64,000 nucleotides of DNA from an uncultured Candidatus Saccharibacteria bacterium (GTDB lineage Bacteria; Patescibacteriota; Minisyncoccia; Phycocordibacterales; UBA1550): positions 58,917-122,916 of the forward strand of contig CAZXOE010000001.1 in the NCBI GenBank assembly GCA_964642305.1, given 5' to 3'. Numbering within the stretch: position 1 is the first letter of the stretch; every line of letters begins with the position of its first letter. A model generated the notes under the pieces. That model made no database searches. It saw only the letters and a program-made list of their open reading frames with translations, and had not been told where the DNA came from. This document shows, in pieces, positions 8,260 to 49,858 of the stretch. Position numbers and translations under genes: made by a program.

Positions 8260-9576
8260 ATGAAAAAGGAAATTACTTGTGACGTCTGTGTAATAGGTGG
8301 CGGACCTGCGGGGATGATGTCGGCAATCCAAGCAAGTGAGTCCGGAGGCTCCGTCGTACTAATTGAGAAAAACAAAACGCTCGGCAAAAAGCTCCTCATC
8401 ACAGGCGGAGGTAGGTGCAACGTTACCAACGCCATCTTTGACAACCGCGCTCTCGCGAATAAATATGGAAAAAAGGGGAAATTTCTGCTATCCCCTTTTT
8501 CAAAGTGGAGCGCGAAGGACACAATTGATTTTTTTGAGTCGCGTGATATGCCTATAAAAATTGAGGCTGAGGGTCGTGTTTTTCCAAAAAGCAACTCCTC
8601 ACAAAGCGTGTTGGAAGTTTTAGTGGATGAAATGAAAGACAGAGGAGTAAAAGTTCTCGTAGGCTTCCCTGTCACCAGAGTAAACTCCTCAAAAAATATC
8701 ATTACGAGCGTGGAAACTGACGACGCTGTGATTTCAGCAAAGGCATTCATCTTCACCACAGGTGGCACAGCGCGTCCTGAAACAGGCTCATCTGGCGACG
8801 GCTTCAAGTGGTTGGGAAAGCTTGGACACTCTATTAACACACCGAGTTCTGCCCTCGTGCCCGTCAAAACTAAGGAGGAATGGTCTCACAGACTACAAGG
8901 CCTCTCACTTTCAAATGTAAAAATAACTCTCGTTGACGCAAAGTCGCGTGGTGAGTCGCGTATTGGAAAAATTCTTTTTACGCACTTTGGACTTTCAGGC
9001 CCACTCGTTCTTGGCCTTAGTCAGACTATCGGCGAATCACTAAAAGACCTGCCCGCCACTGCTTCATCGCTCAATAAGGAAACAGTCGGGCGATGGCAGG
9101 CGGGAGGTACGCCGACTCTTGAATTGGATTTATTCCCCACTCTTGATCAAACTATGCTTGATGAAAAGCTTCGCGAGCATCTAGCCAGGGTACAAAACAA
9201 AAAATGGGCAAACGCTCTCACGGGATTTGTATCTCCCCTTCTTGCTCCTGTGCTTGTAGAACTCTCTGGCATTAGCCCAACAATTCCAGTTAACAAAATC
9301 CCTCGCACAGCGCGCCTAGTATTTTTGAGAAAGCTTAAAGCATTGACTCTCACTCCAACAGGGCTCCTGGGAGCAGAGAAAGCTGTCGTTTCTTCCGGTG
9401 GTGTAGCCCTAGAGGAAATAGACTTTAAAACAATGCGTTCACAAAAAATTGACAACCTTTTCCTAGCTGGCGACATACTAGACTTTGAGCGTCCATCAGG
9501 GGGTTTTAGTCTACAAATATGTTGGGCAACTGGATCTATTGCGGGAAAAAACGCAGGAGTGTACAATGTTAGTTAG
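8260..9576 (+). CDS. FAD-dependent flavoprotein, HI0933/BaiN (YhiN) family
   Basis: N-terminal dinucleotide fold DVCVIGGGPAGMMSAIQASESGGSVVLIEK, GRCNVTN motif; 438 aa typical for the family. Confidence 0.85.
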   Translation: MKKEITCDVCVIGGGPAGMMSAIQASESGGSVVLIEKNKTLGKKLLITGGGRCNVTNAIFDNRALANKYGKKGKFLLSPFSKWSAKDTIDFFESRDMPIKIEAEGRVFPKSNSSQSVLEVLVDEMKDRGVKVLVGFPVTRVNSSKNIITSVETDDAVISAKAFIFTTGGTARPETGSSGDGFKWLGKLGHSINTPSSALVPVKTKEEWSHRLQGLSLSNVKITLVDAKSRGESRIGKILFTHFGLSGPLVLGLSQTIGESLKDLPATASSLNKETVGRWQAGGTPTLELDLFPTLDQTMLDEKLREHLARVQNKKWANALTGFVSPLLAPVLVELSGISPTIPVNKIPRTARLVFLRKLKALTLTPTGLLGAEKAVVSSGGVALEEIDFKTMRSQKIDNLFLAGDILDFERPSGGFSLQICWATGSIAGKNAGVYNVS

Positions 9577-9594
9577 CATCTACGAAATCAATCT

Positions 9595-10851
9595 ATGGAA
9601 GACATAAAAAAATCGCACAAGATAAAATCCCATCTGCAAAAGGTGCAGCAAAAGAAACCTGTTACAAAAAAGACGATTATTTTAATATCCGCGGTCATTG
9701 TCATTTTAGGTATTGGCTCTTCATTCTATTTCACAAGCAAAATTGAGAAATTCTTTTGGAGCGCGCACACTGCGTCTGTCGCAGATATTGTGCACGAGCT
9801 CACAATTCACAGTCTCCAAAATGGAGACGTAAAAAATTGGCAGAACCCTGAAGCAAACGCTCGCTTGTCGTATTTTGCGAAGGAGATGAAGGAATACATT
9901 CCGAACACGATGGCTATGAAAATTTTCACTGTCGATGGAGTTCTTGCGTGGACTGACCTAGCTAGCAAGCAAGCAGGATACCAAAAACCTGAAAGTGACG
10001 GCCAAATGGCTCAAGTCAGAGCAAATAAGTATATGATATTGCCTGCTAGCGATTCCACAAAAAACGAACTCAATGTATATACCCTGCTTGAGGTTTGGTC
10101 TGCTATGGATATGCGAGACGGGGAAACATTAGGATACATTGAAATATATTTTAACACTGCCTACATTCAGTCATTCATCACTGATATACAATATTCTATT
10201 TGGGCTTCTATTCTTGTAATGCTCGTTATTGTGCTCTTTTTTGTCAGGCTCGCGTTCAAGGAGCAGGACTTACGAATTATTGAGCAATCGGAATATTTAA
10301 ATGGCATCATTGACCAATCACCTATTGGCATCTACACCATAAATACAAGTGGATTCATTGAAAGCTACAATCCAGCTATGATGAGAATATCGGGAATCAC
10401 TGACGCGAGTGAAACAATAGGAAAAAATGTTTTTGACGCTGTGGCTTATCAAAAAAATGGACTAGATAAACTCTTAATGAGCGGTATCGGTGGAGTTCCT
10501 TTTGAAACTGAGGTTGAGGTTGATTCCTCGCTGGGAGATCACAAAAAATCATACCGACACTACTACGGTGTTCCACTGAGAGATCAAGCAGGCGATGTTG
10601 ACCACCTGCTAGTGATGGTTGAGGATATCACTAAAAGAAAAGAGCTTGAAAATGAAGTTGTTTTGCGCGCTGGTGACCTAGAGCAAAAGATTAACGAGCG
10701 CACAAAGTCAATCCAAGATAAGGTTGACGATCTAGAAAGATTTCAGAGACTCACTGTTGACCGCGAACTTCGTATGACGGAGCTCAAGCAGGAAATAGAA
10801 AGAATGCGAGCTAAGCTAGAAGAATTGGGTTATAAATCTAATACAGTCTAA
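9595..10851 (+). CDS. membrane-anchored PAS-domain protein with C-terminal coiled coil (no kinase domain)
   Basis: TM helix LISAVIVILGIGSSFYF, a second TM (ASILVMLVIVLFFV), then PAS (IDQSPIGIYTINTSGFIESYNPAMMRISG...LLVMVEDITKRKELE) and a heptad-rich tail. No H-box or HATPase motifs. Confidence 0.65.
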   Translation: MEDIKKSHKIKSHLQKVQQKKPVTKKTIILISAVIVILGIGSSFYFTSKIEKFFWSAHTASVADIVHELTIHSLQNGDVKNWQNPEANARLSYFAKEMKEYIPNTMAMKIFTVDGVLAWTDLASKQAGYQKPESDGQMAQVRANKYMILPASDSTKNELNVYTLLEVWSAMDMRDGETLGYIEIYFNTAYIQSFITDIQYSIWASILVMLVIVLFFVRLAFKEQDLRIIEQSEYLNGIIDQSPIGIYTINTSGFIESYNPAMMRISGITDASETIGKNVFDAVAYQKNGLDKLLMSGIGGVPFETEVEVDSSLGDHKKSYRHYYGVPLRDQAGDVDHLLVMVEDITKRKELENEVVLRAGDLEQKINERTKSIQDKVDDLERFQRLTVDRELRMTELKQEIERMRAKLEELGYKSNTV

Positions 10852-18339: not shown

Positions 18340-19575
18340 ATGCTTTTTAAACACAACCTTAAAACAGCATATAGAGGATTAGAGCAAAACAAGGCTCGCT
18401 CTTTCCTTACTATTCTTGGAATAGTCATTGGGGTTACAGCAATCATTCTCGTGATGTCACTTGGGCAGGGCGCTCAAGATCTTATTCTTGATCAGGTAAA
18501 AGGAATGGGGACTCGTACCATTATAGTAGGCGCTGGGCGTGAACCGACAGGGCCGTCTGATGCGGGGCAGATATTTAATGATTCACTCAAAAAACGCGAC
18601 CTTGATCTTCTTGGACGCAGAGAGAATACACCGAGCTTAAAAGATGTTATGCCACTTGCTTTTGGAGTTGCGAGCGCCTCATACAAAAGCGATACATTCA
18701 GTCTCACCATTTATGGTACTTCTCCCATTATGGAGGATATTTTTACAATGTCACTTAAAGACGGTTCGTTCTTTACCGACGAGGATGTGCGCGCGCGAGC
18801 GAAATATGTCGTGATCGGAAACAAGGTAAAAAACGAACTTTTTGGCGCCGACGATGCAGTAGGAAATATAATCAAAATGAAAGGATATAATTTTCGTGTC
18901 ATTGGAGTCATCTCTGAAAGAGGACAAGACATGCTCGGCTTCGATGAAGCGGCAATTATTCCCTACACCACAGCGCAGGATTATGTGCTTGGCATCAAGC
19001 ACTTTCAGCGCATTATTGCCGAGGCGCGAAGTGAAGAGCTTCTCGACCAAGCCGCAGAGGAGATCAAGCTCACTTTGCGGGAAGCCCACGATATTACCGG
19101 CAATGAAAAAGATGATTTCTTTGTAATCACTCAGGTGCAGGTTGCAGAAAGCCTCTCAACCATTACAAACGTTCTTACTATATTTCTAGCTGCTGTTGCT
19201 GCAATATCACTCATAGTTGGAGGCATTGGCATCATGAATATAATGCTCGTATCAGTGACAGAAAGAACAAAAGAAATTGGCCTTCGCAAGGCTCTTGGCG
19301 CAACATATAAAAATATTCTTACACAATTTCTCTTAGAGGCAGTTATTCTCACAGGCGTTGGTGGAGTAATAGGAATTCTCCTAGGTGCATTCCTGTCCTG
19401 GTCAATAGCGACCAGTATCACAAACTTCACAAATATCGCATGGACGTTTACATTCCCTGTAACTGCTGCAATCCTTGGAATCGGCGTTTCCGCCGCCATA
19501 GGACTCATTTTTGGTCTTTATCCGGCCCGCACAGCCGCAAACAAGAGCCCGATCGACGCTTTACGTTACGAATAA
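18340..19575 (+). CDS. ABC transporter permease, MacB/FtsX family (periplasmic MacB_PCD + FtsX)
   Basis: N-terminal TM (ILGIVIGVTAIILVMSLG), periplasmic core domain, C-terminal FtsX helices (FLAAVAAISLIVGGIGIMNIMLVSVTERTKEIGLRKALGA). Confidence 0.85.
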   Translation: MLFKHNLKTAYRGLEQNKARSFLTILGIVIGVTAIILVMSLGQGAQDLILDQVKGMGTRTIIVGAGREPTGPSDAGQIFNDSLKKRDLDLLGRRENTPSLKDVMPLAFGVASASYKSDTFSLTIYGTSPIMEDIFTMSLKDGSFFTDEDVRARAKYVVIGNKVKNELFGADDAVGNIIKMKGYNFRVIGVISERGQDMLGFDEAAIIPYTTAQDYVLGIKHFQRIIAEARSEELLDQAAEEIKLTLREAHDITGNEKDDFFVITQVQVAESLSTITNVLTIFLAAVAAISLIVGGIGIMNIMLVSVTERTKEIGLRKALGATYKNILTQFLLEAVILTGVGGVIGILLGAFLSWSIATSITNFTNIAWTFTFPVTAAILGIGVSAAIGLIFGLYPARTAANKSPIDALRYE

Positions 19576-19616: not shown

Positions 19617-19675
19617 TATAAATCTCACCCAATAATAAGGTAGCGACCGCTACCTTATTATTGGGTGAGATTTAT
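19617..19675. repeat. family-1 long palindrome, copy a (ATAAATCTCACCCAATAATAAGGTAGCG acc CGCTACCTTATTATTGGGTGAGATTTAT)
   Basis: Perfect 28-bp arms. Second copy at 20319..20367. The two copies bracket the PaaX-like gene at 19720..20304. Confidence 0.8.
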
Positions 19676-19719
19676 AACTATGAAGTTTAAATAGGTAATA
19701 AGTATGATTGTGGGTTTTA

Positions 19720-20304
19720 CTACTTAAGCTCAAAATATTTCCTTACCCATTTGTCATTTTCTATAGAATCCGCGATTATGTACAAAATCTCCTTCCCTAT
19801 TTTATAGTCTGCCTTAATAAGCGTTATAATCTCCTCACAGTTATATGGGAATACCCACACGCTGTTTTGTAACTTAAGGAAGCCTATTTGCTGAAGTTTT
19901 TTTCTAAATTTCTCGCGAGTTCCTTTCCTTTTTTCGCGAATATCAAATATTATTATTCGCCATTTTCCATCCCACTTCCTAGGTTTAATAGACTTAAATT
20001 CATTTCGCTCAATAAGCCTGAGTGTTCGCTCGCCACCCTCGGTTAATCTCAAAAAAACACCTTTTTCTGTTTCCTTCCACGCAACCAGTCCTTTGTCGCG
20101 TAATCTCTTGATTGCATTATTTACTGCGTATCTTCTATTTTCACTATCTTTTTTATTTGGATCAATATGCCTCAATACAGAGAGAACGTTAGGCATTGCC
20201 AATGCGATGCTGATCACTCCTACAGTATACAGAGAAGTCAATACAGCCCTCTGAATTTTTGAGTTACGCATCCTCTTTTTCAGTTTTTCCTCAGCTGTAT
20301 GCAT
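19720..20304 (-). CDS. PaaX-family-like transcriptional regulator paralog (wHTH + Cas2-like C-terminal region)
   Basis: N-terminal hydrophobic stretch (VLTSLYTVGVISIALAM) then wHTH-like segment (AIKRLRDKGLVAWKETEKGVFLRLTEGGERTL). C-terminal WDGKWRIIIFDI...LQNSVWVFP resembles the PaaX C-terminus and the Cas2 core. Paralog at 35152..35703. Confidence 0.55.
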   Translation of the reverse strand: MHTAEEKLKKRMRNSKIQRAVLTSLYTVGVISIALAMPNVLSVLRHIDPNKKDSENRRYAVNNAIKRLRDKGLVAWKETEKGVFLRLTEGGERTLRLIERNEFKSIKPRKWDGKWRIIIFDIREKRKGTREKFRKKLQQIGFLKLQNSVWVFPYNCEEIITLIKADYKIGKEILYIIADSIENDKWVRKYFELK

Positions 20305-20318
20305 TCATAAATTCTATC

Positions 20319-20367
20319 ACACCTCCCAATAATAAGGTAGCGGTCGCTACCTTATTATTGGAGGGTG
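20319..20367. repeat. family-1 long palindrome, copy b (CACCTCCCAATAATAAGGTAGCG gtc GCTACCTTATTATTGGAGGGTG)
   Basis: Shares the core CCAATAATAAGGTAGCG..CGCTACCTTATTATTGG with copy a. Sits immediately upstream of the PaaX-like gene start. Confidence 0.8.
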
Positions 20368-20428: not shown

Positions 20429-20974
20429 TTAGTTGGTGACTTCGCTCCACGCGGAACCGGTGATTTCACCGTCAGAGTTCAATGTAACGACAACCTGCAA
20501 TGTTCGCTTATTGGCATTCATTATTCCTTTTGATGTTATGGTCTTTGAGGTAGCGTCGCCAGTCACCTGCACCTTTGCGCAATCTTTAGACAGGGTGCAT
20601 CCATTCGTACTGAAATCAACTGAATAACAATCGGTAGTCGCGCAAAGATATGTTTTATTGCGAGCGATTTTAATAAGCGCGTCTCGAGCGCCGGACTCTG
20701 CGTAAAAATGCGCACGTGACGACTGCGCGCTTCCCTGTGAAATAAAAAGCTCGGTAAAAGAAAGCGTGGTGATGCTCACGGCAACCACTAGCGCCATCAC
20801 ACCAAGAAGCATGACTGTTGGGAGAGTTGCGACACCGCGGGAGCGCAAAGCACTACAACTGACCACTGACAGCAGACCACTGACAGCAGATTTTCGCTTC
20901 GCGAAAATCTGCTGGTTTGTTTGAGTAGTCGCGTAAGTTGTAAGTTGTAAGTTGTAAGTTGTCATTTGTTTCAT
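20429..20974 (-). CDS. pseudopilin-like protein (prepilin-type N-terminus lacking Glu5)
   Basis: ALRSRG|VATLPTVMLLGVMALVVAVSITT resembles a class-III signal with minor-pilin features. Start is ambiguous: ATG at 20974, or in-frame GTG/TTG giving leaders MVSCSALRSRG / MRSRG. The 5' end carries 4x GTAAGTT heptamers and the palindrome at 20884..20914. Confidence 0.55.
   Translation of the reverse strand: MKQMTTYNLQLTTYATTQTNQQIFAKRKSAVSGLLSVVSCSALRSRGVATLPTVMLLGVMALVVAVSITTLSFTELFISQGSAQSSRAHFYAESGARDALIKIARNKTYLCATTDCYSVDFSTNGCTLSKDCAKVQVTGDATSKTITSKGIMNANKRTLQVVVTLNSDGEITGSAWSEVTN
20884..20914 (-). promoter_or_regulatory. 31-nt hairpin CAGCAGATTTTCGC gaa GCGAAAATCTGCTG flanked by inverted ACAACT(G/T)AC heptamer arms, in the 5' region of the pseudopilin gene
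   Basis: Same palindrome occurs at 43253..43279 upstream of pilM, in the same orientation relative to the gene. Arms: 20851..20883 and 20933..20960 (4 perfect GTAAGTT units). Confidence 0.5.
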
Positions 20975-21632: not shown

Positions 21633-22925
21633 CTACGGCGCCCAGTTTACCACCACATCCTCTACTGTTGGCGTATATGTTCCGGCGTCTGTACAGTTAT
21701 TTGAGCAAATGCGAATCTTGTAGCGGAAGTATCGTTTATTGTTCCATGCAGACCGGCATAGCTCAGCGTCTGTAGCTAATAATCCCACAAGCTCAACAGG
21801 GGTGCCAGGAGTAGGCGCATCAAACCAGTCTCCCGACGCGCATGTTGCGCCTCCAATATATGTCCATGGCCCCCCTGCACTATCAGAAGCAGAGAACTGA
21901 AAACCAACCTTCCCCTCATTTGAGCCAGGTCCACCGAGTGTTCCCTTCCACATTACCGAGTTGTACCCTGCCCCATCGGCGCTTCCTGTTGAGTCAAAAA
22001 CTGCTGAAGTAAGTATGCCGAAAGCAGGCATACCTCCACACGCTGGCGGTTTGTACCTGTGCGTCTCAGTCATTTTGATTCCAAGTCCATAGATCGTCAC
22101 ACCTGAAGGGTTGAAGTTGAGAGTGTATGAATATGTTCCAGCAGAGATTGGTGCGATTTTCCCGCTCGTGTCTTTATAGTCCAATTCAAACGGAGTCGGT
22201 GTGGCTCCGACATTGGGTAACGTAAATGTTTTTGATGTCCCTGCATCAGCATCAATCATAAATGTAATACTTCCGGTTCCCGTGTAAACGCCTGACGCAG
22301 TGAAATGAAGTGATTTCACTGGATTTGGAACACCGGTTAGATTGTCACCAATGTAGAGATTGAATAGGTATGACTGGTTTGTAGAGACTATCACGTTAGA
22401 ATTTGCCACAAGAGTTTCGGTGGTTTTTATTTTTTCATTTGATGGAGAGCCGTCTGCGCATGCCGGAGGTACATACCGATGCGACTCTGTCATCCTTACG
22501 CCCAATCCATAAATTGTTACCCCTGAAGGGTTGAAGTTGAGAGTGTATGAATATGTTCCAGCAGAGATTGGTGCGATTTTCCCGCTCGTGTCTTTATAGT
22601 CCAATTCAAACGGAGTCGGTGTGGCTCCGACATTGGGTAACGTAAATGTTTTTGATGTCCCTGCATCAGCATCAATCATAAATGTAATACTTCCGGTTCC
22701 CGTGTAAACGCCTGACGCAGTGAAATGAAGTGATTTCACTGGATTTGGAACACCGGTTAGATTGTCACCAATGTAGAGATTGAATAGGTATGACTGGTTT
22801 GTAGAGACTGCGGTATCGGAGCTACCAATAATACTTTCTGTGGTTTTAACCTGATCAGCGGCAAAAGCCGCGTAGCTAATGAGACCAAAACCAAGTATTG
22901 AAAAAAGTATATGAAAAATCTTCAT
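21633..22925 (-). CDS. secreted protein with two tandem 140-aa repeat domains
   Basis: Signal peptide MKIFHILFSILGFGLISYAAFA. Protein segments ...STNQSYLFNLYIGDNLTGVPNPVKSLHFTASGVYTGTGSITFMIDADAG... occur twice. DNA 22103..22389 is identical to 22523..22809. Confidence 0.7.
   Translation of the reverse strand: MKIFHILFSILGFGLISYAAFAADQVKTTESIIGSSDTAVSTNQSYLFNLYIGDNLTGVPNPVKSLHFTASGVYTGTGSITFMIDADAGTSKTFTLPNVGATPTPFELDYKDTSGKIAPISAGTYSYTLNFNPSGVTIYGLGVRMTESHRYVPPACADGSPSNEKIKTTETLVANSNVIVSTNQSYLFNLYIGDNLTGVPNPVKSLHFTASGVYTGTGSITFMIDADAGTSKTFTLPNVGATPTPFELDYKDTSGKIAPISAGTYSYTLNFNPSGVTIYGLGIKMTETHRYKPPACGGMPAFGILTSAVFDSTGSADGAGYNSVMWKGTLGGPGSNEGKVGFQFSASDSAGGPWTYIGGATCASGDWFDAPTPGTPVELVGLLATDAELCRSAWNNKRYFRYKIRICSNNCTDAGTYTPTVEDVVVNWAP
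22103..22809. repeat. intragenic tandem direct repeat, period 420 bp, 287 bp identical in both copies
   Basis: Lines beginning 22101 and 22521 are identical through ...ggtttgtagagact, and weaker similarity extends ~60 bp further 5'. Confidence 0.85.
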
Positions 22926-33265: not shown

Positions 33266-34984
33266 TTATTCGTTGACTACTCTAAGTATCTCCTCTATTG
33301 TTGTTACTCCGCGTTCCACCTTATCCAAACCATCTTCAAACATAGTTGTCATTCCATCATCTACCGCTTTTTTTCGTATCTCCCCTACGGTTGCCTCTCG
33401 GAGTATTAGCTCACGAATGGCATCAGTAACTCTGAACAATTCAAAAATACCAATCTGCCCCTGAAACCCAGAATTTCCGCACACCTTGCAACCGCGTCCG
33501 CGATAGAGAGTGTTTGGAATTGCTGAATCCTTGTTTCCAGAAAGCGCCATCTGCGCCTTAATAATACGCACAATCTCTGGGCTAGCAGGATAAGACTCTG
33601 TGCACGAGGAGCAAATGCGACGCACAAGACGCTGAGCGATTACAATATTTACAGTAGAGGAAAGCAAAAATGCCGGCGCGCCCATATCTAGAAGTCTTGG
33701 TAATGCAGAGGTTGCGTCGTTGGTGTGAAGAGACGACAATACAAGGTGCCCCGTAAGCGCGGCGTGGATAGCTATCTCAACCGTTTCATTGTCGCGAATT
33801 TCCCCTATCATAATAATGTCAGGGTTTTGACGAAGTAACGCGCGAAGGCCATTTGCAAATGTAATTCCGGCCTTTGGATTTACTTGAGTTTGATTAACGC
33901 GAGGAAATTCATATTCAACAGGATCCTCAATGGTAGTGATGTTAACAGATGGAGTATTAAGTATTTGAAGTATTGCATAAAGCGATGTTGTCTTGCCGTG
34001 ACCTGTGGGGCCAGTAACAAGGATCATTCCATGGGGTTTTTTAATTTCATTTTGAAGTATCGCTATGCCATCGTTTGAAACTCCAAGATCCTTGAGGGTA
34101 AGCGGGCGCGCGGCTCCTTTCAAAATACGCATTTCAACTTTTTCTCCATGAAAGACAGGCATTATATTTACACGCACATCTACAGAACCGCCATCTTCCA
34201 TATCAAAACGAAAACGACCATCTTGAGGAACGCGATGCTCGTCTATTTGCATTCCAGCGAGGATTTTCACGCGCGCGACAAGCACAGGGGCGATAGTTTG
34301 CGGCAAGCTAACGATCTCCTGCATAATTCCGTCAATGCGATAACGCACAAGGAGTTCCTTGTCCAGAGGTTCAAAATGAATATCAGACGAGTTTAGAGAA
34401 ACTGCGTGATCAATAACATTGTCTAGTATACTAACGATTGGCACTGCGGCAGCGAGCTTTGCGACATCTGCATCTCCACTAACCGCGAGTGACTGCTCTA
34501 CGTTTTCGGAAATAATTTGATCAAAATTGATGCCTACTTTTTTCTTATACTGCTTGAGGCCATATCGCAAACTTGGAACCGTTGTAATGTATACGTCTAC
34601 CCATACATTTAGTTTTGCGCGCACGTATTCAATAGTTTCGTAATCAAATGGGTCAAGCATTGCAAGCTTTGCGCGACCTTGCTTTTTGTCGTAATCAAAC
34701 AAAACTACATTTTTTGCTTTAGCATACGCTTCTGGAATGAGCGCAAGCACGTCTGGGTTGATGGTTTCCGAACCCTCTTTTTTAAGATTAATTATTGGCG
34801 TGCCATAATACGGACTCAAAAGCTCTGCAAAATAATCCTCGGGAATTTTCCCTCTTCCTATTAAAATATTTTGGATAGACTGCCCAGAACGACGAGACTC
34901 TTCCACAGCAACACCAAAATCCTCATCAGTCACAAGTCCCGACTCAATTACAATCTCTTTTAATTTCTCTTTTGCGATGTGCAT
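33266..34984 (-). CDS. pilB: type IV pilus assembly ATPase PilB (GspE family)
   Basis: Walker A LVTGPTGHGKTT, Asp box, His box, C-terminal tetracysteine (CSSC...CKVC); N-terminal GspII_E-like domain. Confidence 0.9.
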   Translation of the reverse strand: MHIAKEKLKEIVIESGLVTDEDFGVAVEESRRSGQSIQNILIGRGKIPEDYFAELLSPYYGTPIINLKKEGSETINPDVLALIPEAYAKAKNVVLFDYDKKQGRAKLAMLDPFDYETIEYVRAKLNVWVDVYITTVPSLRYGLKQYKKKVGINFDQIISENVEQSLAVSGDADVAKLAAAVPIVSILDNVIDHAVSLNSSDIHFEPLDKELLVRYRIDGIMQEIVSLPQTIAPVLVARVKILAGMQIDEHRVPQDGRFRFDMEDGGSVDVRVNIMPVFHGEKVEMRILKGAARPLTLKDLGVSNDGIAILQNEIKKPHGMILVTGPTGHGKTTSLYAILQILNTPSVNITTIEDPVEYEFPRVNQTQVNPKAGITFANGLRALLRQNPDIIMIGEIRDNETVEIAIHAALTGHLVLSSLHTNDATSALPRLLDMGAPAFLLSSTVNIVIAQRLVRRICSSCTESYPASPEIVRIIKAQMALSGNKDSAIPNTLYRGRGCKVCGNSGFQGQIGIFELFRVTDAIRELILREATVGEIRKKAVDDGMTTMFEDGLDKVERGVTTIEEILRVVNE

Positions 34985-35083: not shown

Positions 35084-35123
35084 CACAGCTATCCCCATTT
35101 TCTACCTATAGGTAGAAAATGGG
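35084..35123. repeat. family-2 palindrome copy 1 (CTATCCCCATTTTCTACC tata GGTAGAAAATGGGGATAG)
   Basis: Perfect 18-bp arms. Further copies at 35733..35772 and 38113..38154. Copies 1 and 2 bracket the PaaX-like paralog. Confidence 0.8.
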
Positions 35124-35151
35124 GATAGTGAACGGCATACTATACGCTCAA

Positions 35152-35703
35152 TTACGAGAGTCCGAAGTACTCCTTAAGCTTGCCCACACCTTCGATCTCT
35201 TTTGCCTTAATATAAATGATGTGGTCTCTTACTCCGAAAAATTCTCCGACGAAATCAATTTCGTTCTTACAAAGATATGGCGACACAAAAACAGATTTCT
35301 GAATCGGATATAGTCCAAGGTCTTTTATCTTTCGACTTACTGCGCTCCGTGCTAGTTTTTTCGACTCTGGAATATCAAACATCACAATGCGCCAAAAGCC
35401 ATCCCATTTTTTTGGCGTCTTAAGCTTCATATCATCAAGGTTGTATTCAAGAACTTTTTTCTTGCCTGCTTTTGTTATTTCCACAACTTCATTACCATTA
35501 TGTGTATAAATATTTATTAACTTCTTTTCATGAAGCCCTTTAATTGCCCTCTTAACGCGATACCTATCCCGCGCGCTTTCTGGTTTAAATAAAGGAACGA
35601 TTTTTGTGAGTCCAGGCATAGCAAGGCACGCAACAAGAAATCCGCCGAGTGCTAGACCTATTAATATCTCTTTGGCAAGCTCTCCATTTTTATAATCCTT
35701 CAT
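35152..35703 (-). CDS. PaaX-family-like transcriptional regulator paralog
   Basis: Same architecture as 19720..20304: hydrophobic N-term (ILIGLALGGFLVACLAM), wHTH-like segment (AIKGLHEKKLINIYTHNGNEVVEITKAGKKKVL), and WDGFWRIVMFDIPE...IQKSVFVSP. Confidence 0.55.
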   Translation of the reverse strand: MKDYKNGELAKEILIGLALGGFLVACLAMPGLTKIVPLFKPESARDRYRVKRAIKGLHEKKLINIYTHNGNEVVEITKAGKKKVLEYNLDDMKLKTPKKWDGFWRIVMFDIPESKKLARSAVSRKIKDLGLYPIQKSVFVSPYLCKNEIDFVGEFFGVRDHIIYIKAKEIEGVGKLKEYFGLS

Positions 35704-35732
35704 AATATATACTCATGTACTATTGTATCATA

Positions 35733-35772
35733 CTATCCCCAAATTCTACCTATAGGTAGAAAATGGGGATAG
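35733..35772. repeat. family-2 palindrome copy 2 (CTATCCCCAAATTCTACC tata GGTAGAAAATGGGGATAG)
   Basis: Two arm mismatches relative to copy 1. Confidence 0.8.
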
Positions 35773-35816
35773 TATGACACCAGAATATATTACTTTGAAT
35801 TACTAAACTCTGGTTT

Positions 35817-36715: not shown

Positions 36716-36807
36716 AAAACTACCTCCTGCGCCAATTTTGTTTTGGTTTTTTCCATAGGTTTAACCTATGGAAACTTTTGGACGTTGGACGTCCAAGAAT
36801 AATTGGC

Positions 36808-37073: not shown

Positions 37074-37981
37074 TCAATAGCTTGGACGCGATACAATAAA
37101 TATCATGTCATACACAACAAACCCCAACATGCCTAAAGTTCGCCGTGATGCGGCGCAAATGGTGTACAAAGGATATTCAAAAGCAGAGGTCGGGAGAAGG
37201 TTCGGTGTAGGGTCCAGCACCATTTGTAAGTGGGTAAAGAAAGCAGAGAAGTATGGATATTACCCAATCCCTACTCTTTCCTCTCGACCCAGACACCACC
37301 CCAAGGAACTTCCAAGTGATCTTGTGTGGAAAATCTTTGGGCAGAGAGTTAAGAGTAAGCGCTGCGCGGAAGTAGTGCATCAAGAACTCAAGAATGATGG
37401 AGTTGAAGTTTCGCTGTCATCGGTAAAGCGTGTGCTTGATCGTGCAGGACTTACGAAGAAGAGGAGCCCTTGGAAGCGCTACCATCCGCACGTAGATCGT
37501 CCACTTCCTAAAAACCCTGGTGATTTGGTCGAAATGGACACCATTCACCTAATGGTAGACAAGAAGAAGCGCATCTACGTCTTTGTGCTCATTGATGTTT
37601 ACTCCCGCTGGGTATATGTAAAAGCGTATGAACACATGAACAGCCTCCAGATGCTTCGGTTTGTGCGTGAGGCACAAAGAGCTGCGCCGTTTCATTTCTC
37701 GATGCTCCAGAGCGACCACGGACCAGAGTTTGGCAAATTGTTCGTCTCTCGTATAAAAAAGGATCATCGGTTTACCCGTATTGGCAAACCAAATGACAAT
37801 GCCCATGTCGAACGGTTCAACCGCACTATCCAGGAGGAATGTTTAGACAGAGTGGATAGTAATGTGCCAGTGCTTAACAAAGCGATTAAGAAGTATGTGC
37901 ATTACTACAACCACACACGCCTCCACATGGGAATTGCATTTTTAGCGCCGATACAATTAATTAATCGCGTCCAAGCTATTG
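37074..37981 (+). mobile_element. IS481-like insertion sequence (~0.9 kb) with 19-bp terminal inverted repeats
   Basis: Left TIR TCAATAGCTTGGACGCGAT (37074..37092) is the exact reverse complement of ATCGCGTCCAAGCTATTGA (37963..37981). Encloses a single transposase ORF. Confidence 0.65.
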
Positions 37982-37986
37982 ACTAG
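37105..37986 (+). CDS. DDE transposase (HTH + rve integrase core), IS481/IS3 superfamily
   Basis: N-terminal HTH (GYSKAEVGRRFGVGSSTICKWV). Catalytic core VEMDTIHL...DHGPEF...NDNAHVERFNRTIQEE carries the DDE residues. Confidence 0.8.
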   Translation: MSYTTNPNMPKVRRDAAQMVYKGYSKAEVGRRFGVGSSTICKWVKKAEKYGYYPIPTLSSRPRHHPKELPSDLVWKIFGQRVKSKRCAEVVHQELKNDGVEVSLSSVKRVLDRAGLTKKRSPWKRYHPHVDRPLPKNPGDLVEMDTIHLMVDKKKRIYVFVLIDVYSRWVYVKAYEHMNSLQMLRFVREAQRAAPFHFSMLQSDHGPEFGKLFVSRIKKDHRFTRIGKPNDNAHVERFNRTIQEECLDRVDSNVPVLNKAIKKYVHYYNHTRLHMGIAFLAPIQLINRVQAID

Positions 37987-38112
37987 AATACGGTCGTGCG
38001 TTCCCTGCATAATCCTACATAGGGTAACCCTATGTAAAATATGCGCGAGATCTATGGGAGATAACTGAGCTTGCCTAGGACGGTCCTAGGTAAATAGGTG
38101 AGTCCTATGGAG

Positions 38113-38154
38113 ACTATCCCCAAATCCTACCTATAGGTAGGATTTGGGGATAGT
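38113..38154. repeat. family-2 palindrome copy 3 (ACTATCCCCAAATCCTACC tata GGTAGGATTTGGGGATAGT, perfect)
   Basis: Arm differences relative to copies 1 and 2 are compensatory (AAATC/GATTT versus ATTTT/AAAAT). Confidence 0.8.
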
Positions 38155-46895: not shown

Positions 46896-48557
46896 ATGTC
46901 TCATATGAAAAAAAATATTGAAACTGCGGAGACTATTCGCAAGGCCGGTTTTGAAGGCGAGATTATCTCCGATGTAGCGAATCTCATTAAATACGAAAAC
47001 GACACGAGCCTATTTGAGCTTCGTCCGGAACTCGCGGTCAAACCAAAAGACGTTTCTGATATTAAAAAATTAGTTTCCTTTGTTGCTGACAAAAAAGACG
47101 AGGACTCAACACTGTCTCTCACCGCTCGAGCTGCAGGAACAGGGATGGCAGGAGGCGCGCTCAACGACTCTATTATTGTAGATGTTGCAAACTTAAATCA
47201 TATTAAAAGTGCAAGTACTGAAAGAGTCGTTGTTGAGCCTGGTGTTTATTATCGCGATATGGATACTGAAACAAGAAAGCTTGGCGTTATTATGCCGTCA
47301 TTCCCCGCTTCGCGAAATCTGTGCGCAGTGGGTGGAATGGTAGGTACAAATGCGTCAGGCGAAATGACACTCTCTTATGGAAGCACCGAAAACTGGGTAA
47401 GGCGTCTTAAGGTTGTGCTTTCTGACGGTAATGAATACGAACTTGGGCCATTAACAGAGAGCGAGCTTGCTTTAAAGAAAAACATCAAAGGTTTTGAAGG
47501 AGAGATTTATCGTCGTATGCACGAGCTTGTTGAAGAAAATTACGACATAATTAAACGCGCAAAACCAAAGGTTTCAAAAAACTCCACAGGTTACGCTCTT
47601 TGGAATGTGTGGGACAGAAAAACCTTTGATCTTACAAAGCTATTCACTGGATCTGAGGGTACACTTGGGATTTTTACAGAAATTGAATTTGCTTTGATAA
47701 AACCAAAGGAACATCGTAAGCTAGTTGTGATATTTTTGACTGATTTTAACAAACTATCAGAGGTCGTCACGCAGGTGCTTAAACATAAACCAGAAACATT
47801 TGAATCGTACGACGATCACACGTTTCAATTTGCAATTCGTTTTTTCCCAGATATTGTGAAGTCACTAAAAACAGGGATAGTGAAGCTTGGGCTTTCATTT
47901 ATTCCTGAAGCATTTATGGTGCTACGTGGCGGGTTCCCAAAGCTTGTGCTCCTTGCTGAGTTTACAGGTGATACGGAGGAAGAAGCGATGGGAAAAGCAC
48001 AAATCGCGTATGACGACCTTAAACAATTCCGCGCGCAGATTGAGATAATGAAAACAGAAAAGGATGCTGAAAAGTTTTGGACAATACGACACGAAAGTTT
48101 CAATTTGCTTAGAAAGCACGGTGGAAAAGACAAGACTGCTCCTTTTATAGACGACATAATTGTTGCCCCAGAAAAGCTTCCAATGTTTTTACCAAAACTT
48201 GCCGAGGTGATGAAGGAGTACAAGCTTACATACACTATCGCTGGACACATTGGCGATGGTAATCTGCACATTATTCCCCTGATGAACCTAAGGAACGCTC
48301 GTGACCGCGATATTGTGATGGAGCTTTCACAAAAAGTATTTAACCTCGTGTTTGAATTTGGCGGTTCAATGTCAGCAGAGCACAACGATGGACTCGTTCG
48401 CACTGCGTACCTAAAACAGATGTATGGCGAAAAAATCTATCATTTATTTGAGGAAACAAAAAATATTTTTGACCCTAAAAATATTTTTAACCCTGGCAAA
48501 AAAGTTTATGGACACGACCTTGAATACATCAAGGAACATATTGATAAGGTGTACTAG
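46896..48557 (+). CDS. FAD-linked oxidase (GlcD / D-lactate dehydrogenase family; FAD_binding_4 + FAD-oxidase_C)
   Basis: FAD-binding PCMH region (TARAAGTGMAGGALNDSIIVD, GGMVGTNASG), C-terminal oxidase domain. 553 aa. Confidence 0.85.
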   Translation: MSHMKKNIETAETIRKAGFEGEIISDVANLIKYENDTSLFELRPELAVKPKDVSDIKKLVSFVADKKDEDSTLSLTARAAGTGMAGGALNDSIIVDVANLNHIKSASTERVVVEPGVYYRDMDTETRKLGVIMPSFPASRNLCAVGGMVGTNASGEMTLSYGSTENWVRRLKVVLSDGNEYELGPLTESELALKKNIKGFEGEIYRRMHELVEENYDIIKRAKPKVSKNSTGYALWNVWDRKTFDLTKLFTGSEGTLGIFTEIEFALIKPKEHRKLVVIFLTDFNKLSEVVTQVLKHKPETFESYDDHTFQFAIRFFPDIVKSLKTGIVKLGLSFIPEAFMVLRGGFPKLVLLAEFTGDTEEEAMGKAQIAYDDLKQFRAQIEIMKTEKDAEKFWTIRHESFNLLRKHGGKDKTAPFIDDIIVAPEKLPMFLPKLAEVMKEYKLTYTIAGHIGDGNLHIIPLMNLRNARDRDIVMELSQKVFNLVFEFGGSMSAEHNDGLVRTAYLKQMYGEKIYHLFEETKNIFDPKNIFNPGKKVYGHDLEYIKEHIDKVY

Positions 48558-48617
48558 GAAGCAAGTAAAAATGCCCAGCCACACTAGTGTGGCTGGGCAT
48601 TTTTACTTGCTTCCTAG
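48554..48617. terminator. 64-bp perfect palindrome (CTAGGAAGCAAGTAAAAATGCCCAGCCACAC tag GTGTGGCTGGGCATTTTTACTTGCTTCCTAG) between convergent genes
   Basis: Overlaps both stop codons (the oxidase ends at 48557 and nirK ends at 48614). Internal TTTTT/AAAAA runs make it a bidirectional terminator. Confidence 0.6.
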
Positions 48618-49858
48618 TGTCCCATCTTTTCTGTCATTTCTGGCGTAGGAATTACGCCCTCATATATTTCTTTATTCTCTGAGCCAGTAACACTTATGAC
48701 CCCCCATGCTCCGCGATCAAGACGCGCGAGCGCGTGATCAACGAGGATATAGTTGCCTGGAACATCGAATTTCATCTCAACGATTGCGGCACCTCCAGCT
48801 GGAACTATCGTTGTCTGCACATTTTCAAAAATCGCAGAATTAGGACCCATGGCCGCCTCTGGATATACTCTGTCAAAAATTTCACCAATCACATGAAATG
48901 ATGAGATAAGATTAACTCCGCCATTCCCTACATAAATGCGCGCTGTCTCTCCTACTTTTGCCGACATATTCCCAACAGTACCTTTCACACGACCGTTGAA
49001 TACGATGTACTCCGGATGTCCGTCAAGAAGCTTGTGAGCATCCATAATCTGAAGACCCTTTGTACCCATTTTACCACTTGGATAAAATTCTCCCTGCACC
49101 ACGTAGAATTCCTTATCAACCTTTGGAAGACCCTCTTTTGGCTCAACCAATATGAGTCCGTACATACCATGCGCCATGTGGTTCCCCACATTTGCATGCG
49201 CGCAGTGATAAATATAAAGGCCAGGGTTAAGCATCTTAAAGCTCGCCTTTTTTGTCTCGCCAGGAGCAATGTTTGTCACTACAGCTCCACCTCCAGGGCC
49301 AGTTACAGCGTGGAAATCTATATTATGTGGAGCAACACTCGTGAGATCGTTCGTGATAGTTAAATCAATGGTGTCCCCTTCACGTACGCGCACCATAGGG
49401 CCTGGAACTGTTCCGTTAAAAGTCCAGTAATCTATAAAAACACCTGGAGCAATTTCAGAAATAATATCCTTTGTGACTAAGTCAAGTTTTACACGAGCTG
49501 GTTCCGTGCGGTTGATTGGAGGGGGGACATCGTTTGGGTCGCGGGCAATATCAGATGCTCGCTCAATAGTTTTAAATTTCTTAAAAAAATCAGTGATGTT
49601 TGCAAGCGGTAGCGAGGGATTGGCGCCTGGTCCGTACGTCGTTATTCCAAATGGATATTCAAGTTGATTTGGAAACGCGCGGGGAGAAAAAACGAATACC
49701 ACGATACCAAAAAATACAACAGAAAGCCATATTGCAGTCTTGAGTGAATGAATTTTGCGAAGAACAATAAAAATAAAAAGTCCACCAGCAGCGAGCGCTA
49801 TAAAGAAACCAAATGTTTGAAAAATGACAAACTTAGTAAAATAAAAAAATTCAATCAT
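48614..49858 (-). CDS. nirK: copper-containing nitrite reductase NirK (two-domain multicopper oxidase)
   Basis: Type-2 Cu site HNIDFHAVTGPGGG. Type-1 Cu ligands in YIYHCAHANVGNHMAHGMYGLILVEP (Cys-His-Met). N-terminal TM/signal anchor. Confidence 0.85.
   Translation of the reverse strand: MIEFFYFTKFVIFQTFGFFIALAAGGLFIFIVLRKIHSLKTAIWLSVVFFGIVVFVFSPRAFPNQLEYPFGITTYGPGANPSLPLANITDFFKKFKTIERASDIARDPNDVPPPINRTEPARVKLDLVTKDIISEIAPGVFIDYWTFNGTVPGPMVRVREGDTIDLTITNDLTSVAPHNIDFHAVTGPGGGAVVTNIAPGETKKASFKMLNPGLYIYHCAHANVGNHMAHGMYGLILVEPKEGLPKVDKEFYVVQGEFYPSGKMGTKGLQIMDAHKLLDGHPEYIVFNGRVKGTVGNMSAKVGETARIYVGNGGVNLISSFHVIGEIFDRVYPEAAMGPNSAIFENVQTTIVPAGGAAIVEMKFDVPGNYILVDHALARLDRGAWGVISVTGSENKEIYEGVIPTPEMTEKMGH

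Follow-up and report, generated by a model that had tools for sequence, protein, structure and literature searches.

The window analyzed here is a 64,000-nucleotide (nt) stretch of contig CAZXOE010000001.1 from an uncultured Candidatus Saccharibacteria bacterium. It contains a type IV pilus gene cluster that lies wholly on the minus strand and extends from the PilB gene (33266-34984) to the pilin genes (from 20429), with two paralogous genes, here called genes A and B, at its opposite ends. Gene A is neighbored by type IV pilus genes and a gene for a MacB-like ATP-binding cassette (ABC) transporter, encodes a short PaaX-like protein, and is bracketed by two long palindromes, P1a and P1b. An identical 2.6-kb region was found in another assembly. 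The features of the gene A locus are as follows.

P1a, 19617..19676, no strand assigned: downstream site of gene A, a 60-bp perfect palindrome.
Gene A, 19720..20304, minus strand: 194-amino-acid (aa) mini-PaaX with a predicted winged helix and a Cas2-like domain (Pfam PaaX_M).
Extended -10 element TGaTAGAAT, 20311..20319, minus strand: inferred, ending 6 nt before the ATG at 20304.
P1b, 20320..20367, no strand assigned: upstream site of gene A.

The original prediction had placed two perfect palindromes with arms of 23-28 bp and a 3-nt spacer around the gene at 19720..20304. The bracketing is borne out, with copies at 19617-19676 and 20320-20367, but the spacer measures 2 nt in both of them. 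Perfect arms were found in P1a (29 nt each, around the plus-strand center AC) but not in P1b, where the 23-nt arms are 91% complementary, the perfect stretch covers 17 nt per arm (20326-20361), the outer pairing (CACCTC/GAGGGTG) is imperfect, and the center is GT. P1a begins 43 nt after the gene A stop codon, between gene A (end at 19720) and the convergent MacB-like gene (end at 19575). P1b follows the last pilin gene (end at 20429) at a distance of 62 nt, abuts the -10 element, and is separated from the gene A start codon by 15 nt. The family core of P1a is at about 19628-19665. P1a and P1b have a 37-nt core in common, and the two versions are exact reverse complements of each other because the central dinucleotide is flipped (AC vs. 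GT). The outer 12 nt of each P1a arm (TATAAATCTCAC / GTGAGATTTATA) form an A/T-flanked extension that is absent from P1b; beyond a distance (d) of 19 nt from the center, P1a has 10 further perfect pairs, which is rarely seen in the site family. With up to three mismatches tolerated, the 17-mer arm occurs four times in the window, always within P1a or P1b (chance expectation 0.18; none of 100 shuffles gave four).

Protein A has a Lys/Arg-rich N-terminus, a predicted winged helix-turn-helix at residues ~20-100, and a Cas2-like ferredoxin fold at residues ~109-182. The match of residues 109-182 to Pfam PaaX_M ("PaaX protein central Cas2-like domain," PF20803) has an E-value of 2e-21 (76.3 bits against a cutoff of 24). 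The match of the same stretch to Pfam Cas2 (PF09827) is far weaker (2e-5; 25.1 against 23.8), and that to the NCBIfam Cas2 model TIGR01573 is marginal (29 against a cutoff of 24.5). These matches confirm the Cas2-like C-terminal core that had been described for this protein. The accompanying view that such a core is unusual in a regulator was wrong, since a central domain of this type (PF20803) defines the PaaX family. The NCBIfam PaaX model TIGR02277 aligns with residues 60-167 and reaches 48.6 bits against a cutoff of 264.55. Among Pfam matches to the rest of the protein at E<=1, only weak ones to MarR, HTH_27, and DUF6293_C were present, and the PaaX N-terminal family PF07848 was not among them. 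No Pfam match to PaaX_C, the C-terminal domain that is reported to bind the inducer, was found in gene A, and the protein stops 12 residues past the Cas2-like domain.

An AlphaFold model based on 21 homologs has a beta-alpha-beta-beta-alpha-beta C-terminal domain with a predicted local distance difference test score (pLDDT) of 81-93 (10-residue blocks from residue 111), and a helix-helix-helix-wing N-terminal half at low confidence (pLDDT 43-74). The top Foldseek match is Escherichia coli PaaX (8A39; 1.5e-6). The next PDB matches by sequence and fold are Rv0674 (3KFW), the Jannaschia PaaX-like protein 3L09, and Cas2 proteins, and Cas2 structures are also among the Foldseek matches to the C-terminal domain. 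Residue D121, the Cas2-type Asp of an FDI motif at the end of beta-1, is invariant in the homolog alignment. A hydrophobic, uncharged stretch follows the Lys/Arg-rich N-terminus at residues ~20-38 (window ~20191-20247) in all 21 homologs (19-residue Kyte-Doolittle mean of 1.6-2.3 in each) and lines up with the initial helices of the winged helix in PaaX. In solved PaaX structures, the Cas2-like domain is described as the dimerization motif (PMC9493321).

Two established identities were considered for this protein and rejected. In agreement with the original prediction, the window contains no spaced-repeat CRISPR array, and the 19 neighboring or mid-sized open reading frames (ORFs) scanned as a subset of the window ORFs yielded no Cas1 domain; these absences and the much stronger PaaX_M match contradict an identity as CRISPR Cas2. 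PaaX proper was set aside because PaaX_C is lacking, the score is far under the equivalog cutoff, and no paa genes were found in the scanned parts of the window. No tRNA genes were found in the window. Judged by its domain composition, what sets the protein apart is its truncation to two domains, for which the name "mini-PaaX" is proposed. A word-index search gave 344 homologs of gene A, all from Candidate Phyla Radiation (CPR)/Patescibacteria or unclassified bacteria where the source is named. Many of these records carry the name "Cas2" or "PaaX" from their sources, and the former is misleading. At least 593 matches to the gene A family were found among species-representative genomes, and 874 clusters were obtained (50% identity, E-value 1e-30 or better), with proteins of mostly ~165-260 aa and typically 185-200 aa. 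Several diverged mini-PaaX paralogs occur per genome.

The comparison covered ~85 related CPR loci; for the site counts, 79 related loci were combined with the window (~800 kb in all). The sites, their association with genes, the symmetry profile, compensatory evolution, paralog specificity, and promoter geometry were computed directly. At least one dyad site within ~150 nt of the mini-PaaX start and/or stop codon is present at 67 of the 80 loci, and sites are present on both sides at 34. Palindromes with arms of at least 16 nt have a density of 2.64/kb in the near-gene zone (100 nt upstream or 130 nt downstream) vs. 0.065/kb in the remaining 760 kb, a 41-fold difference. The centers CGGTCG, CGACCG, CTATAG, CGATCG, and CGGCCG account for 51 of the 59 near-gene palindromes with arms of at least 10 nt, compared with 8 of 104 elsewhere. 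Of the five sites in the window, four are gene-adjacent, and sites away from genes occur at ~0.01/kb in the ~800 kb. A minority of orphan copies exist. This distribution does not match the genome-wide scatter without gene association that the original prediction had named as the finding that would speak against it.

The sites have a common internal organization. In 104 sites aligned on the center and scored for symmetry at each distance d, symmetry is 1.0-0.8 at d1-5, ~0.5-0.8 at d6-9, and 0.85-0.96 at d10-17, and from d20 it is at the background level of ~0.3. As a control, 38 sites chosen by the center alone (uninterrupted arm of at most 9 nt) still have values of 0.74-0.95 at d10-17. The register of the half-sites to the center is strict and gapless. 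The center has the consensus C(G/T)-RY-(C/A)G with a central step that is always purine-pyrimidine, and the seemingly asymmetric AC or GT is therefore a degenerate form of a symmetric RY. On these alignments, the conserved unit is a bipartite dyad of 36-40 bp that combines a family-wide center with lineage-specific outer half-sites. Its span equals that of the 39-bp E. coli PaaX box, TGATTC-N27-GAATCA (PMC9493321).

The position of the sites relative to the start codon is also informative. Among 61 orthologs with a securely aligned start, 38 have a TANNNT hexamer ending exactly 6 nt before the ATG, compared with at most 13 for any other offset. At the same offset, 28 orthologs have a five-of-six match to TATAAT. 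A Shine-Dalgarno-like sequence was found in 4 of the 61. Mini-PaaX genes look leaderless, given this spacing of the -10 hexamer from the ATG and the rarity of Shine-Dalgarno-like sequences. Two layouts were recognized. In the first, the right arm contains the -10 hexamer at d5-10 and the ATG at d17-19, such that the core promoter falls entirely within the site. In the second, which includes genes A and B, the site ends just upstream of the -10 hexamer. For gene A, the order is P1b, TGaTAGAAT, 6 nt, and ATG, and P1b spans about -22 to -60 of the inferred promoter. A sigma-70 scan of two window regions was uninformative alone, and the promoter was inferred from the position-specific ortholog count. 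A comparison of sense and antisense -10 hexamers inside the left arm gave no clear difference.

Gene B, at the other end of the pilus cluster, has sites of its own.

Gene B, 35152..35703, minus strand: 183-aa mini-PaaX paralog, 30% identical to A (PaaX_M, 5e-18).
P2a, 35089..35128, no strand assigned: downstream site of gene B, a 40-bp perfect palindrome with arms CTATCCCCATTTTCTACCTA and TAGGTAGAAAATGGGGATAG.
P2b, 35732..35773, no strand assigned: upstream site of gene B.
P2c, 38113..38154, no strand assigned: orphan third family-2 copy, a 42-bp perfect palindrome.

P2a starts 23 nt past the gene B stop codon and ~105 nt upstream of the PilB start. P2a and P2b have identical outer half-sites and centers and differ solely in the spacer (d9-d10). 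The three family-2 copies vary solely at d7, d9, and d10, within the weakly constrained spacer. P2c is located outside an insertion sequence (IS) of the IS3 type, at a distance of 125 nt, and adjoins a pilin gene's terminator-like hairpin.

Comparison of orthologs indicated that site sequences change in a paired and paralog-specific manner. Orthologs of gene A have sites at the same places with GGTAGCG, GGAAGCG, or GGTAACG beside the center, and in each case both the opposite arm and the sister copy carry the corresponding change. In an 87%-identical ortholog, CCAATTAT replaces the CCAATAAT of the window, with the matching change in the recovered arms of both copies (the upstream site of this ortholog is interrupted by a contig end). 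A-clade sites have the form AATAAGG..CG-RY-CG and B-clade sites the form CTATCCC(C)AA..C(C/T)AT(A/G)G. Within the B clade, orthologs in a map-[gene]-TraG-like context have CTATCCC(C)AA half-sites, as paralog B does, and orthologs in a glycogen-gene context have CACAGAG half-sites; one metagenome-assembled genome (MAG) has both B-like types, each with a different site pair. The outer half-sites group by eye with predicted recognition-helix subfamilies, with the pairings "RRQKE" and YMTACAY, "SPRQK" and TGTAC, and "SIN.SR.RL" and AAATAAG.

Taken together, these patterns make it probable, and we hold this with moderate confidence, that P1a and P1b are cognate twin operators of protein A for autorepression. 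Protein A would consist of an N-terminal winged helix and a Cas2-like dimerization domain, without a ligand-binding C-terminal domain. A mini-PaaX dimer would recognize the 36-40 bp dyad, with P1a and P1b as the two cognate sites of protein A and the three family-2 palindromes as sites of paralog B. The upstream site, located at or over the -10 hexamer, would when occupied exclude RNA polymerase and shut off its own gene by promoter occlusion. Steric hindrance is also the means by which E. coli PaaX represses its own Px promoter (PMC9493321). For the downstream copy, the probable role is that of an auxiliary operator, which would form a loop of ~600-760 bp with the upstream site, or of a roadblock that would insulate the gene from neighboring transcription. 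Once transcribed, P1a would form a very stable hairpin that looks like a bidirectional terminator. The primary family-wide function is probably protein binding, with downstream and orphan copies serving as auxiliary operators or roadblocks that some lineages, this one among them, would also have reshaped into terminator-like hairpins. The operator role was one of the candidates in the original prediction, and it is supported by the site-gene association, the bipartite dyad of fixed spacing, the paralog-specific half-sites, the overlap with the promoter, and the PaaX-box span; from these we infer the binding itself, as well as dimerization, repression, looping or roadblocking, and leaderless transcription.

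The locus appears to be old and not recently mobile, because orthologs keep its context. The pilin-pilin-gene context recurs in the closest species-level orthologs in the genome collection (L001-L003, 65-67% identity), with the convergent MacB gene found in L003 and in L090 (68% identity) too. Recent mobility was rejected, as this synteny and the paired divergence of the sites weigh against it. The same observations bear on a broader alternative, in which the site-gene-site unit is a present or former selfish or mobile cassette, the palindromes are terminal inverted repeats or hairpin recombination sites, and the Cas2-like domain with its FDI Asp acts as a structure-specific nuclease, in analogy to systems of a REP-associated tyrosine transposase (RAYT) and its repetitive extragenic palindromes (REP) and to IS200/IS605 ends. 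Consistent with this possibility, flanking copies are mostly inverted (AC:GT is 14:10 upstream and 9:19 downstream), the central dinucleotide is flipped between close relatives, and D121 is invariant. Moreover, there are several diverged paralogs per genome, B-like paralogs look as if inserted in conserved operons (after map and inside a glycogen gene cluster), and a RelB/RelE-like gene pair in L028 is bracketed by similar palindromes. However, the inverted orientation rests on two central bases that are themselves a degenerate symmetric RY. The position is stable across orthologs of 65-87% identity, and paralogs within a genome are of old divergence (30-80% identity) rather than recent identical duplicates, and each is accompanied by diverged sites of its own. 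Visual inspection of the outer boundaries revealed no target-site duplications, and the copy number is low, as in the five sites of the 64-kb window. A recombinase role is not known for either Cas2 or PaaX_M. A cassette origin is therefore considered very unlikely, and the original suggestion that the palindromes are boundaries of a mobile cassette is not supported, given the diverged but still paired sites in a conserved pilin/gene/MacB context.

Several observations concern copies that are not upstream of a mini-PaaX gene. The genes next to downstream sites are co-directional in 29 cases and convergent in 19, and the center-to-center distance between upstream and downstream sites is 593-764 bp. 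P2a lies ~100 nt upstream of the PilB -10 hexamer. Since P2a is too far away to overlap this hexamer and P1a lies between convergent genes, the downstream sites are not all operators of the next gene. L043 has a third, identical-armed copy that precedes a three-gene operon, and the far end of this operon abuts the mini-PaaX downstream site. The pilus cluster of the window is framed by P2a and P1b. When metagenome contigs were scanned for exact matches to the family-1 core, three orphan copies turned up, all between convergent genes.

L084, 3456-3515: 60-nt perfect palindrome with A-tract and T-tract flanks, between RelA/SpoT-like and ParB-like genes.
L085, ~1090-1140: orphan copy between convergent ApbE-like and HAD-like genes.
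L086, ~1930-1980: orphan copy between convergent genes.

Two further loci were noted in this context. In L028 (9385-10132), the RelB/RelE-like pair (ORFs 9542-9814 and 9824-10081) lies between two CTATAG-centered palindromes, and no mini-PaaX gene is adjacent. In L058 (10440-10600), two canonical terminator-like hairpins enclose an orphan family-2-like site (CTATCCCCAAAC...CTATAG...) ahead of an infB-rbfA operon; this MAG also holds the closest A and B orthologs.

Such copies raise the alternative that the palindromes are mainly nucleic-acid hairpins, i.e., RNA stem-loops that terminate or stabilize transcripts, with the adjacent protein being incidental or hairpin-binding. P1b would then end the pilus operon, and P1a would end both gene A and the convergent MacB gene. 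In line with this, each window site is downstream of some gene, and the predicted RNA folds of the window sites are very stable (-34 to -45 kcal/mol, z of -8 to -13; -44.7 kcal/mol, z = -12.9 for the transcribed strand of P1a). A consensus scan flagged P1a, which has A/T-rich symmetric flanks, as terminator-like on the minus strand, and P2a was also flagged. The orphan copies between convergent genes, including the tract-flanked L084 copy, and the copy-specific palindromy past the shared core in the window, L088, and L090 also fit. An Rfam search of the whole window gave no match at the gathering score and only sub-threshold microRNA-hairpin artifacts on the palindromes. Evidence from the site family points the other way. 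Only 5 of 50 downstream sites are followed by a T-run of at least four, the sequence after the sites has a background T content, and mismatches (GT:AC of 11:11 downstream and 17:10 upstream) are mostly non-wobble without G-U bias. The 38 sites chosen by the center hold center and outer half-sites in strict register with four central-arm positions unpaired. Ordinary terminators are neither sequence-conserved between sites nor tied to one gene family, and they lack a center conserved across phyla-level divergence; canonical terminators occur elsewhere in the window, one of them directly beside P2c. Finally, upstream sites are located at or upstream of the inferred transcription start. RNA hairpins, also among the roles first proposed, may thus be a secondary role of the downstream copy here, but they fail as a family-wide explanation, and a mainly hairpin-based function is on balance unlikely, while being the foremost of the alternatives.

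Autorepression through twin operators leaves several observations unaccounted for, and these weigh against it. About 60% of the sites, including all window sites, are palindromic through the spacer, and 9 of the 104 sites (including P1a) are palindromic beyond d19, ~10 times the chance level. In the A clade (window, L088, and L090), the extensions keep their palindromy, although their sequences are not the same in sister copies or in relatives. A protein dimer alone leaves full palindromy unexplained, and either a hairpin function or quasi-palindrome correction by template switching is needed. Such correction of quasi-palindromes, known as a mutational bias, could alternatively maintain perfect symmetry. 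Symmetry falls at d6-9 in part because the -10 hexamer constrains only one arm in the layout with this hexamer inside the site, and the dip should therefore not be read as a clean protein footprint. The correlation between recognition helices and half-sites is also expected from shared ancestry, such that the grouping is consistent with recognition but not decisive. Orphan copies and copies between convergent genes cannot be classical promoter operators. As for the protein, residues 20-38 could, from their composition, be a membrane helix instead of a part of the winged helix, and the protein lacks a sensor domain through which repression would be relieved.

A more far-reaching possibility is that the paralog-specific site pairs constitute a CPR-wide, protein-dependent system for bracketing transcription units, although we regard this as improbable. 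Mini-PaaX dimers at both ends of a unit would bridge the ends or block RNA polymerase and act as programmable insulators or terminators. The units would be the mini-PaaX gene itself, the pilus operon (P2a-P1b), the three-gene operon of L043, and the toxin-antitoxin pair of L028, and perfect palindromy would be kept since the sites must also work as hairpins. In a radical form, the Cas2-like domain would cut or process these hairpins. A wider insulating role is suggested because the L043, L028, and window copies, albeit few cases, bracket other units.

Other repeats and palindromes in the window differ from the mini-PaaX sites. The IS3-like element (37074-37982), located between the paralog B region and P2c, contains a transposase ORF with an rve domain (37105-37986, plus strand) and has terminal inverted repeats of 26 nt (88% complementary) that are unrelated to the mini-PaaX palindromes. 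Small palindromes of another kind flank this element at 36755-36795 and 38019-38092 (CCATAGGTTTAACCTATGG and ACATAGGGTAACCCTATGT, GGACGTTGGACGTCC and CCTAGGACGGTCCTAGG). At 48553-48618, a 66-nt perfect palindrome (33-nt arms, center CACTAGTG, inner part AAAAATGCCCAGCC...GGCTGGGCATTTTT) lies between a convergent ORF (46896-48557, plus strand) and a multicopper-oxidase-like gene (48614-49858, minus strand); it resembles a bidirectional intrinsic terminator and is outside the mini-PaaX site class. In the pilus cluster, the ORF at 21633-22925 (minus strand, 430 aa) has a near-exact internal duplication of ~140 aa (420 nt), and the shadow ORFs within it (22097-22255 and 22517-22675) differ by one residue.

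CPR/Patescibacteria are mostly uncultivated, have small genomes, and have hardly been studied experimentally with regard to gene regulation. What appears to be new in these lineages is a widespread layout, occurring in hundreds of CPR bacteria, that combines a sensor-less mini-PaaX, paralog-specific twin operators, and an apparently leaderless gene, whereas the class of mechanism is familiar. In the open-access PMC and bioRxiv literature on PaaX in connection with Cas2, palindromes, or Patescibacteria, no description was found. The family shows a PaaX-type DNA-binding core without a sensor domain, and its many natural site variants offer a route to how a winged helix and a Cas2-like domain may read a 40-bp dyad. 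If autorepression through twin operators holds, each member brings a predicted operator, promoter, and start site, which would yield orthogonal repressor-operator pairs and would make regulons readable in unculturable organisms, here possibly tied to type IV pili.

Among known systems, CRISPR Cas2 has the same ferredoxin-like beta-alpha-beta-beta-alpha-beta fold and the conserved Asp (FDI), and its models PF09827 and TIGR01573 score just above their cutoffs on gene A. Unlike Cas2, the domain in gene A is fused to a predicted N-terminal winged helix. RAYT/REP systems also have a gene flanked by two gene-specific palindromes, and each paralog has its own palindrome family. However, the gene A product is not a HUH/Y1 transposase, and the mini-PaaX sites do not occur as tens to hundreds of scattered copies and remain syntenic over long divergence. 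LacI (O1/O2), GalR (OE/OI), and DeoR have a second near-identical operator hundreds of bp away, downstream of the promoter, and by analogy such looping repressors with auxiliary operators may be the simplest precedent for the downstream copy. In contrast to these repressors, the second mini-PaaX site lies stereotypically just after the stop codon, even between convergent genes.

The best match among solved structures in both sequence and fold, E. coli PaaX, has a winged helix followed by a Cas2-like dimerization domain, an order also predicted for protein A, and its dyad of ~39 bp with widely spaced half-sites lies over its own promoter (PMC9493321). Protein A differs in size (194 aa vs. ~316 aa), in the lack of PaaX_C and presumably of phenylacetyl-CoA sensing, and in the lack of nearby paa genes. 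Moreover, mini-PaaX sites have a conserved center, are often fully palindromic, and bracket the gene as a pair, and the genes are apparently leaderless, confined to CPR, and present as several orthogonal paralogs per small genome.

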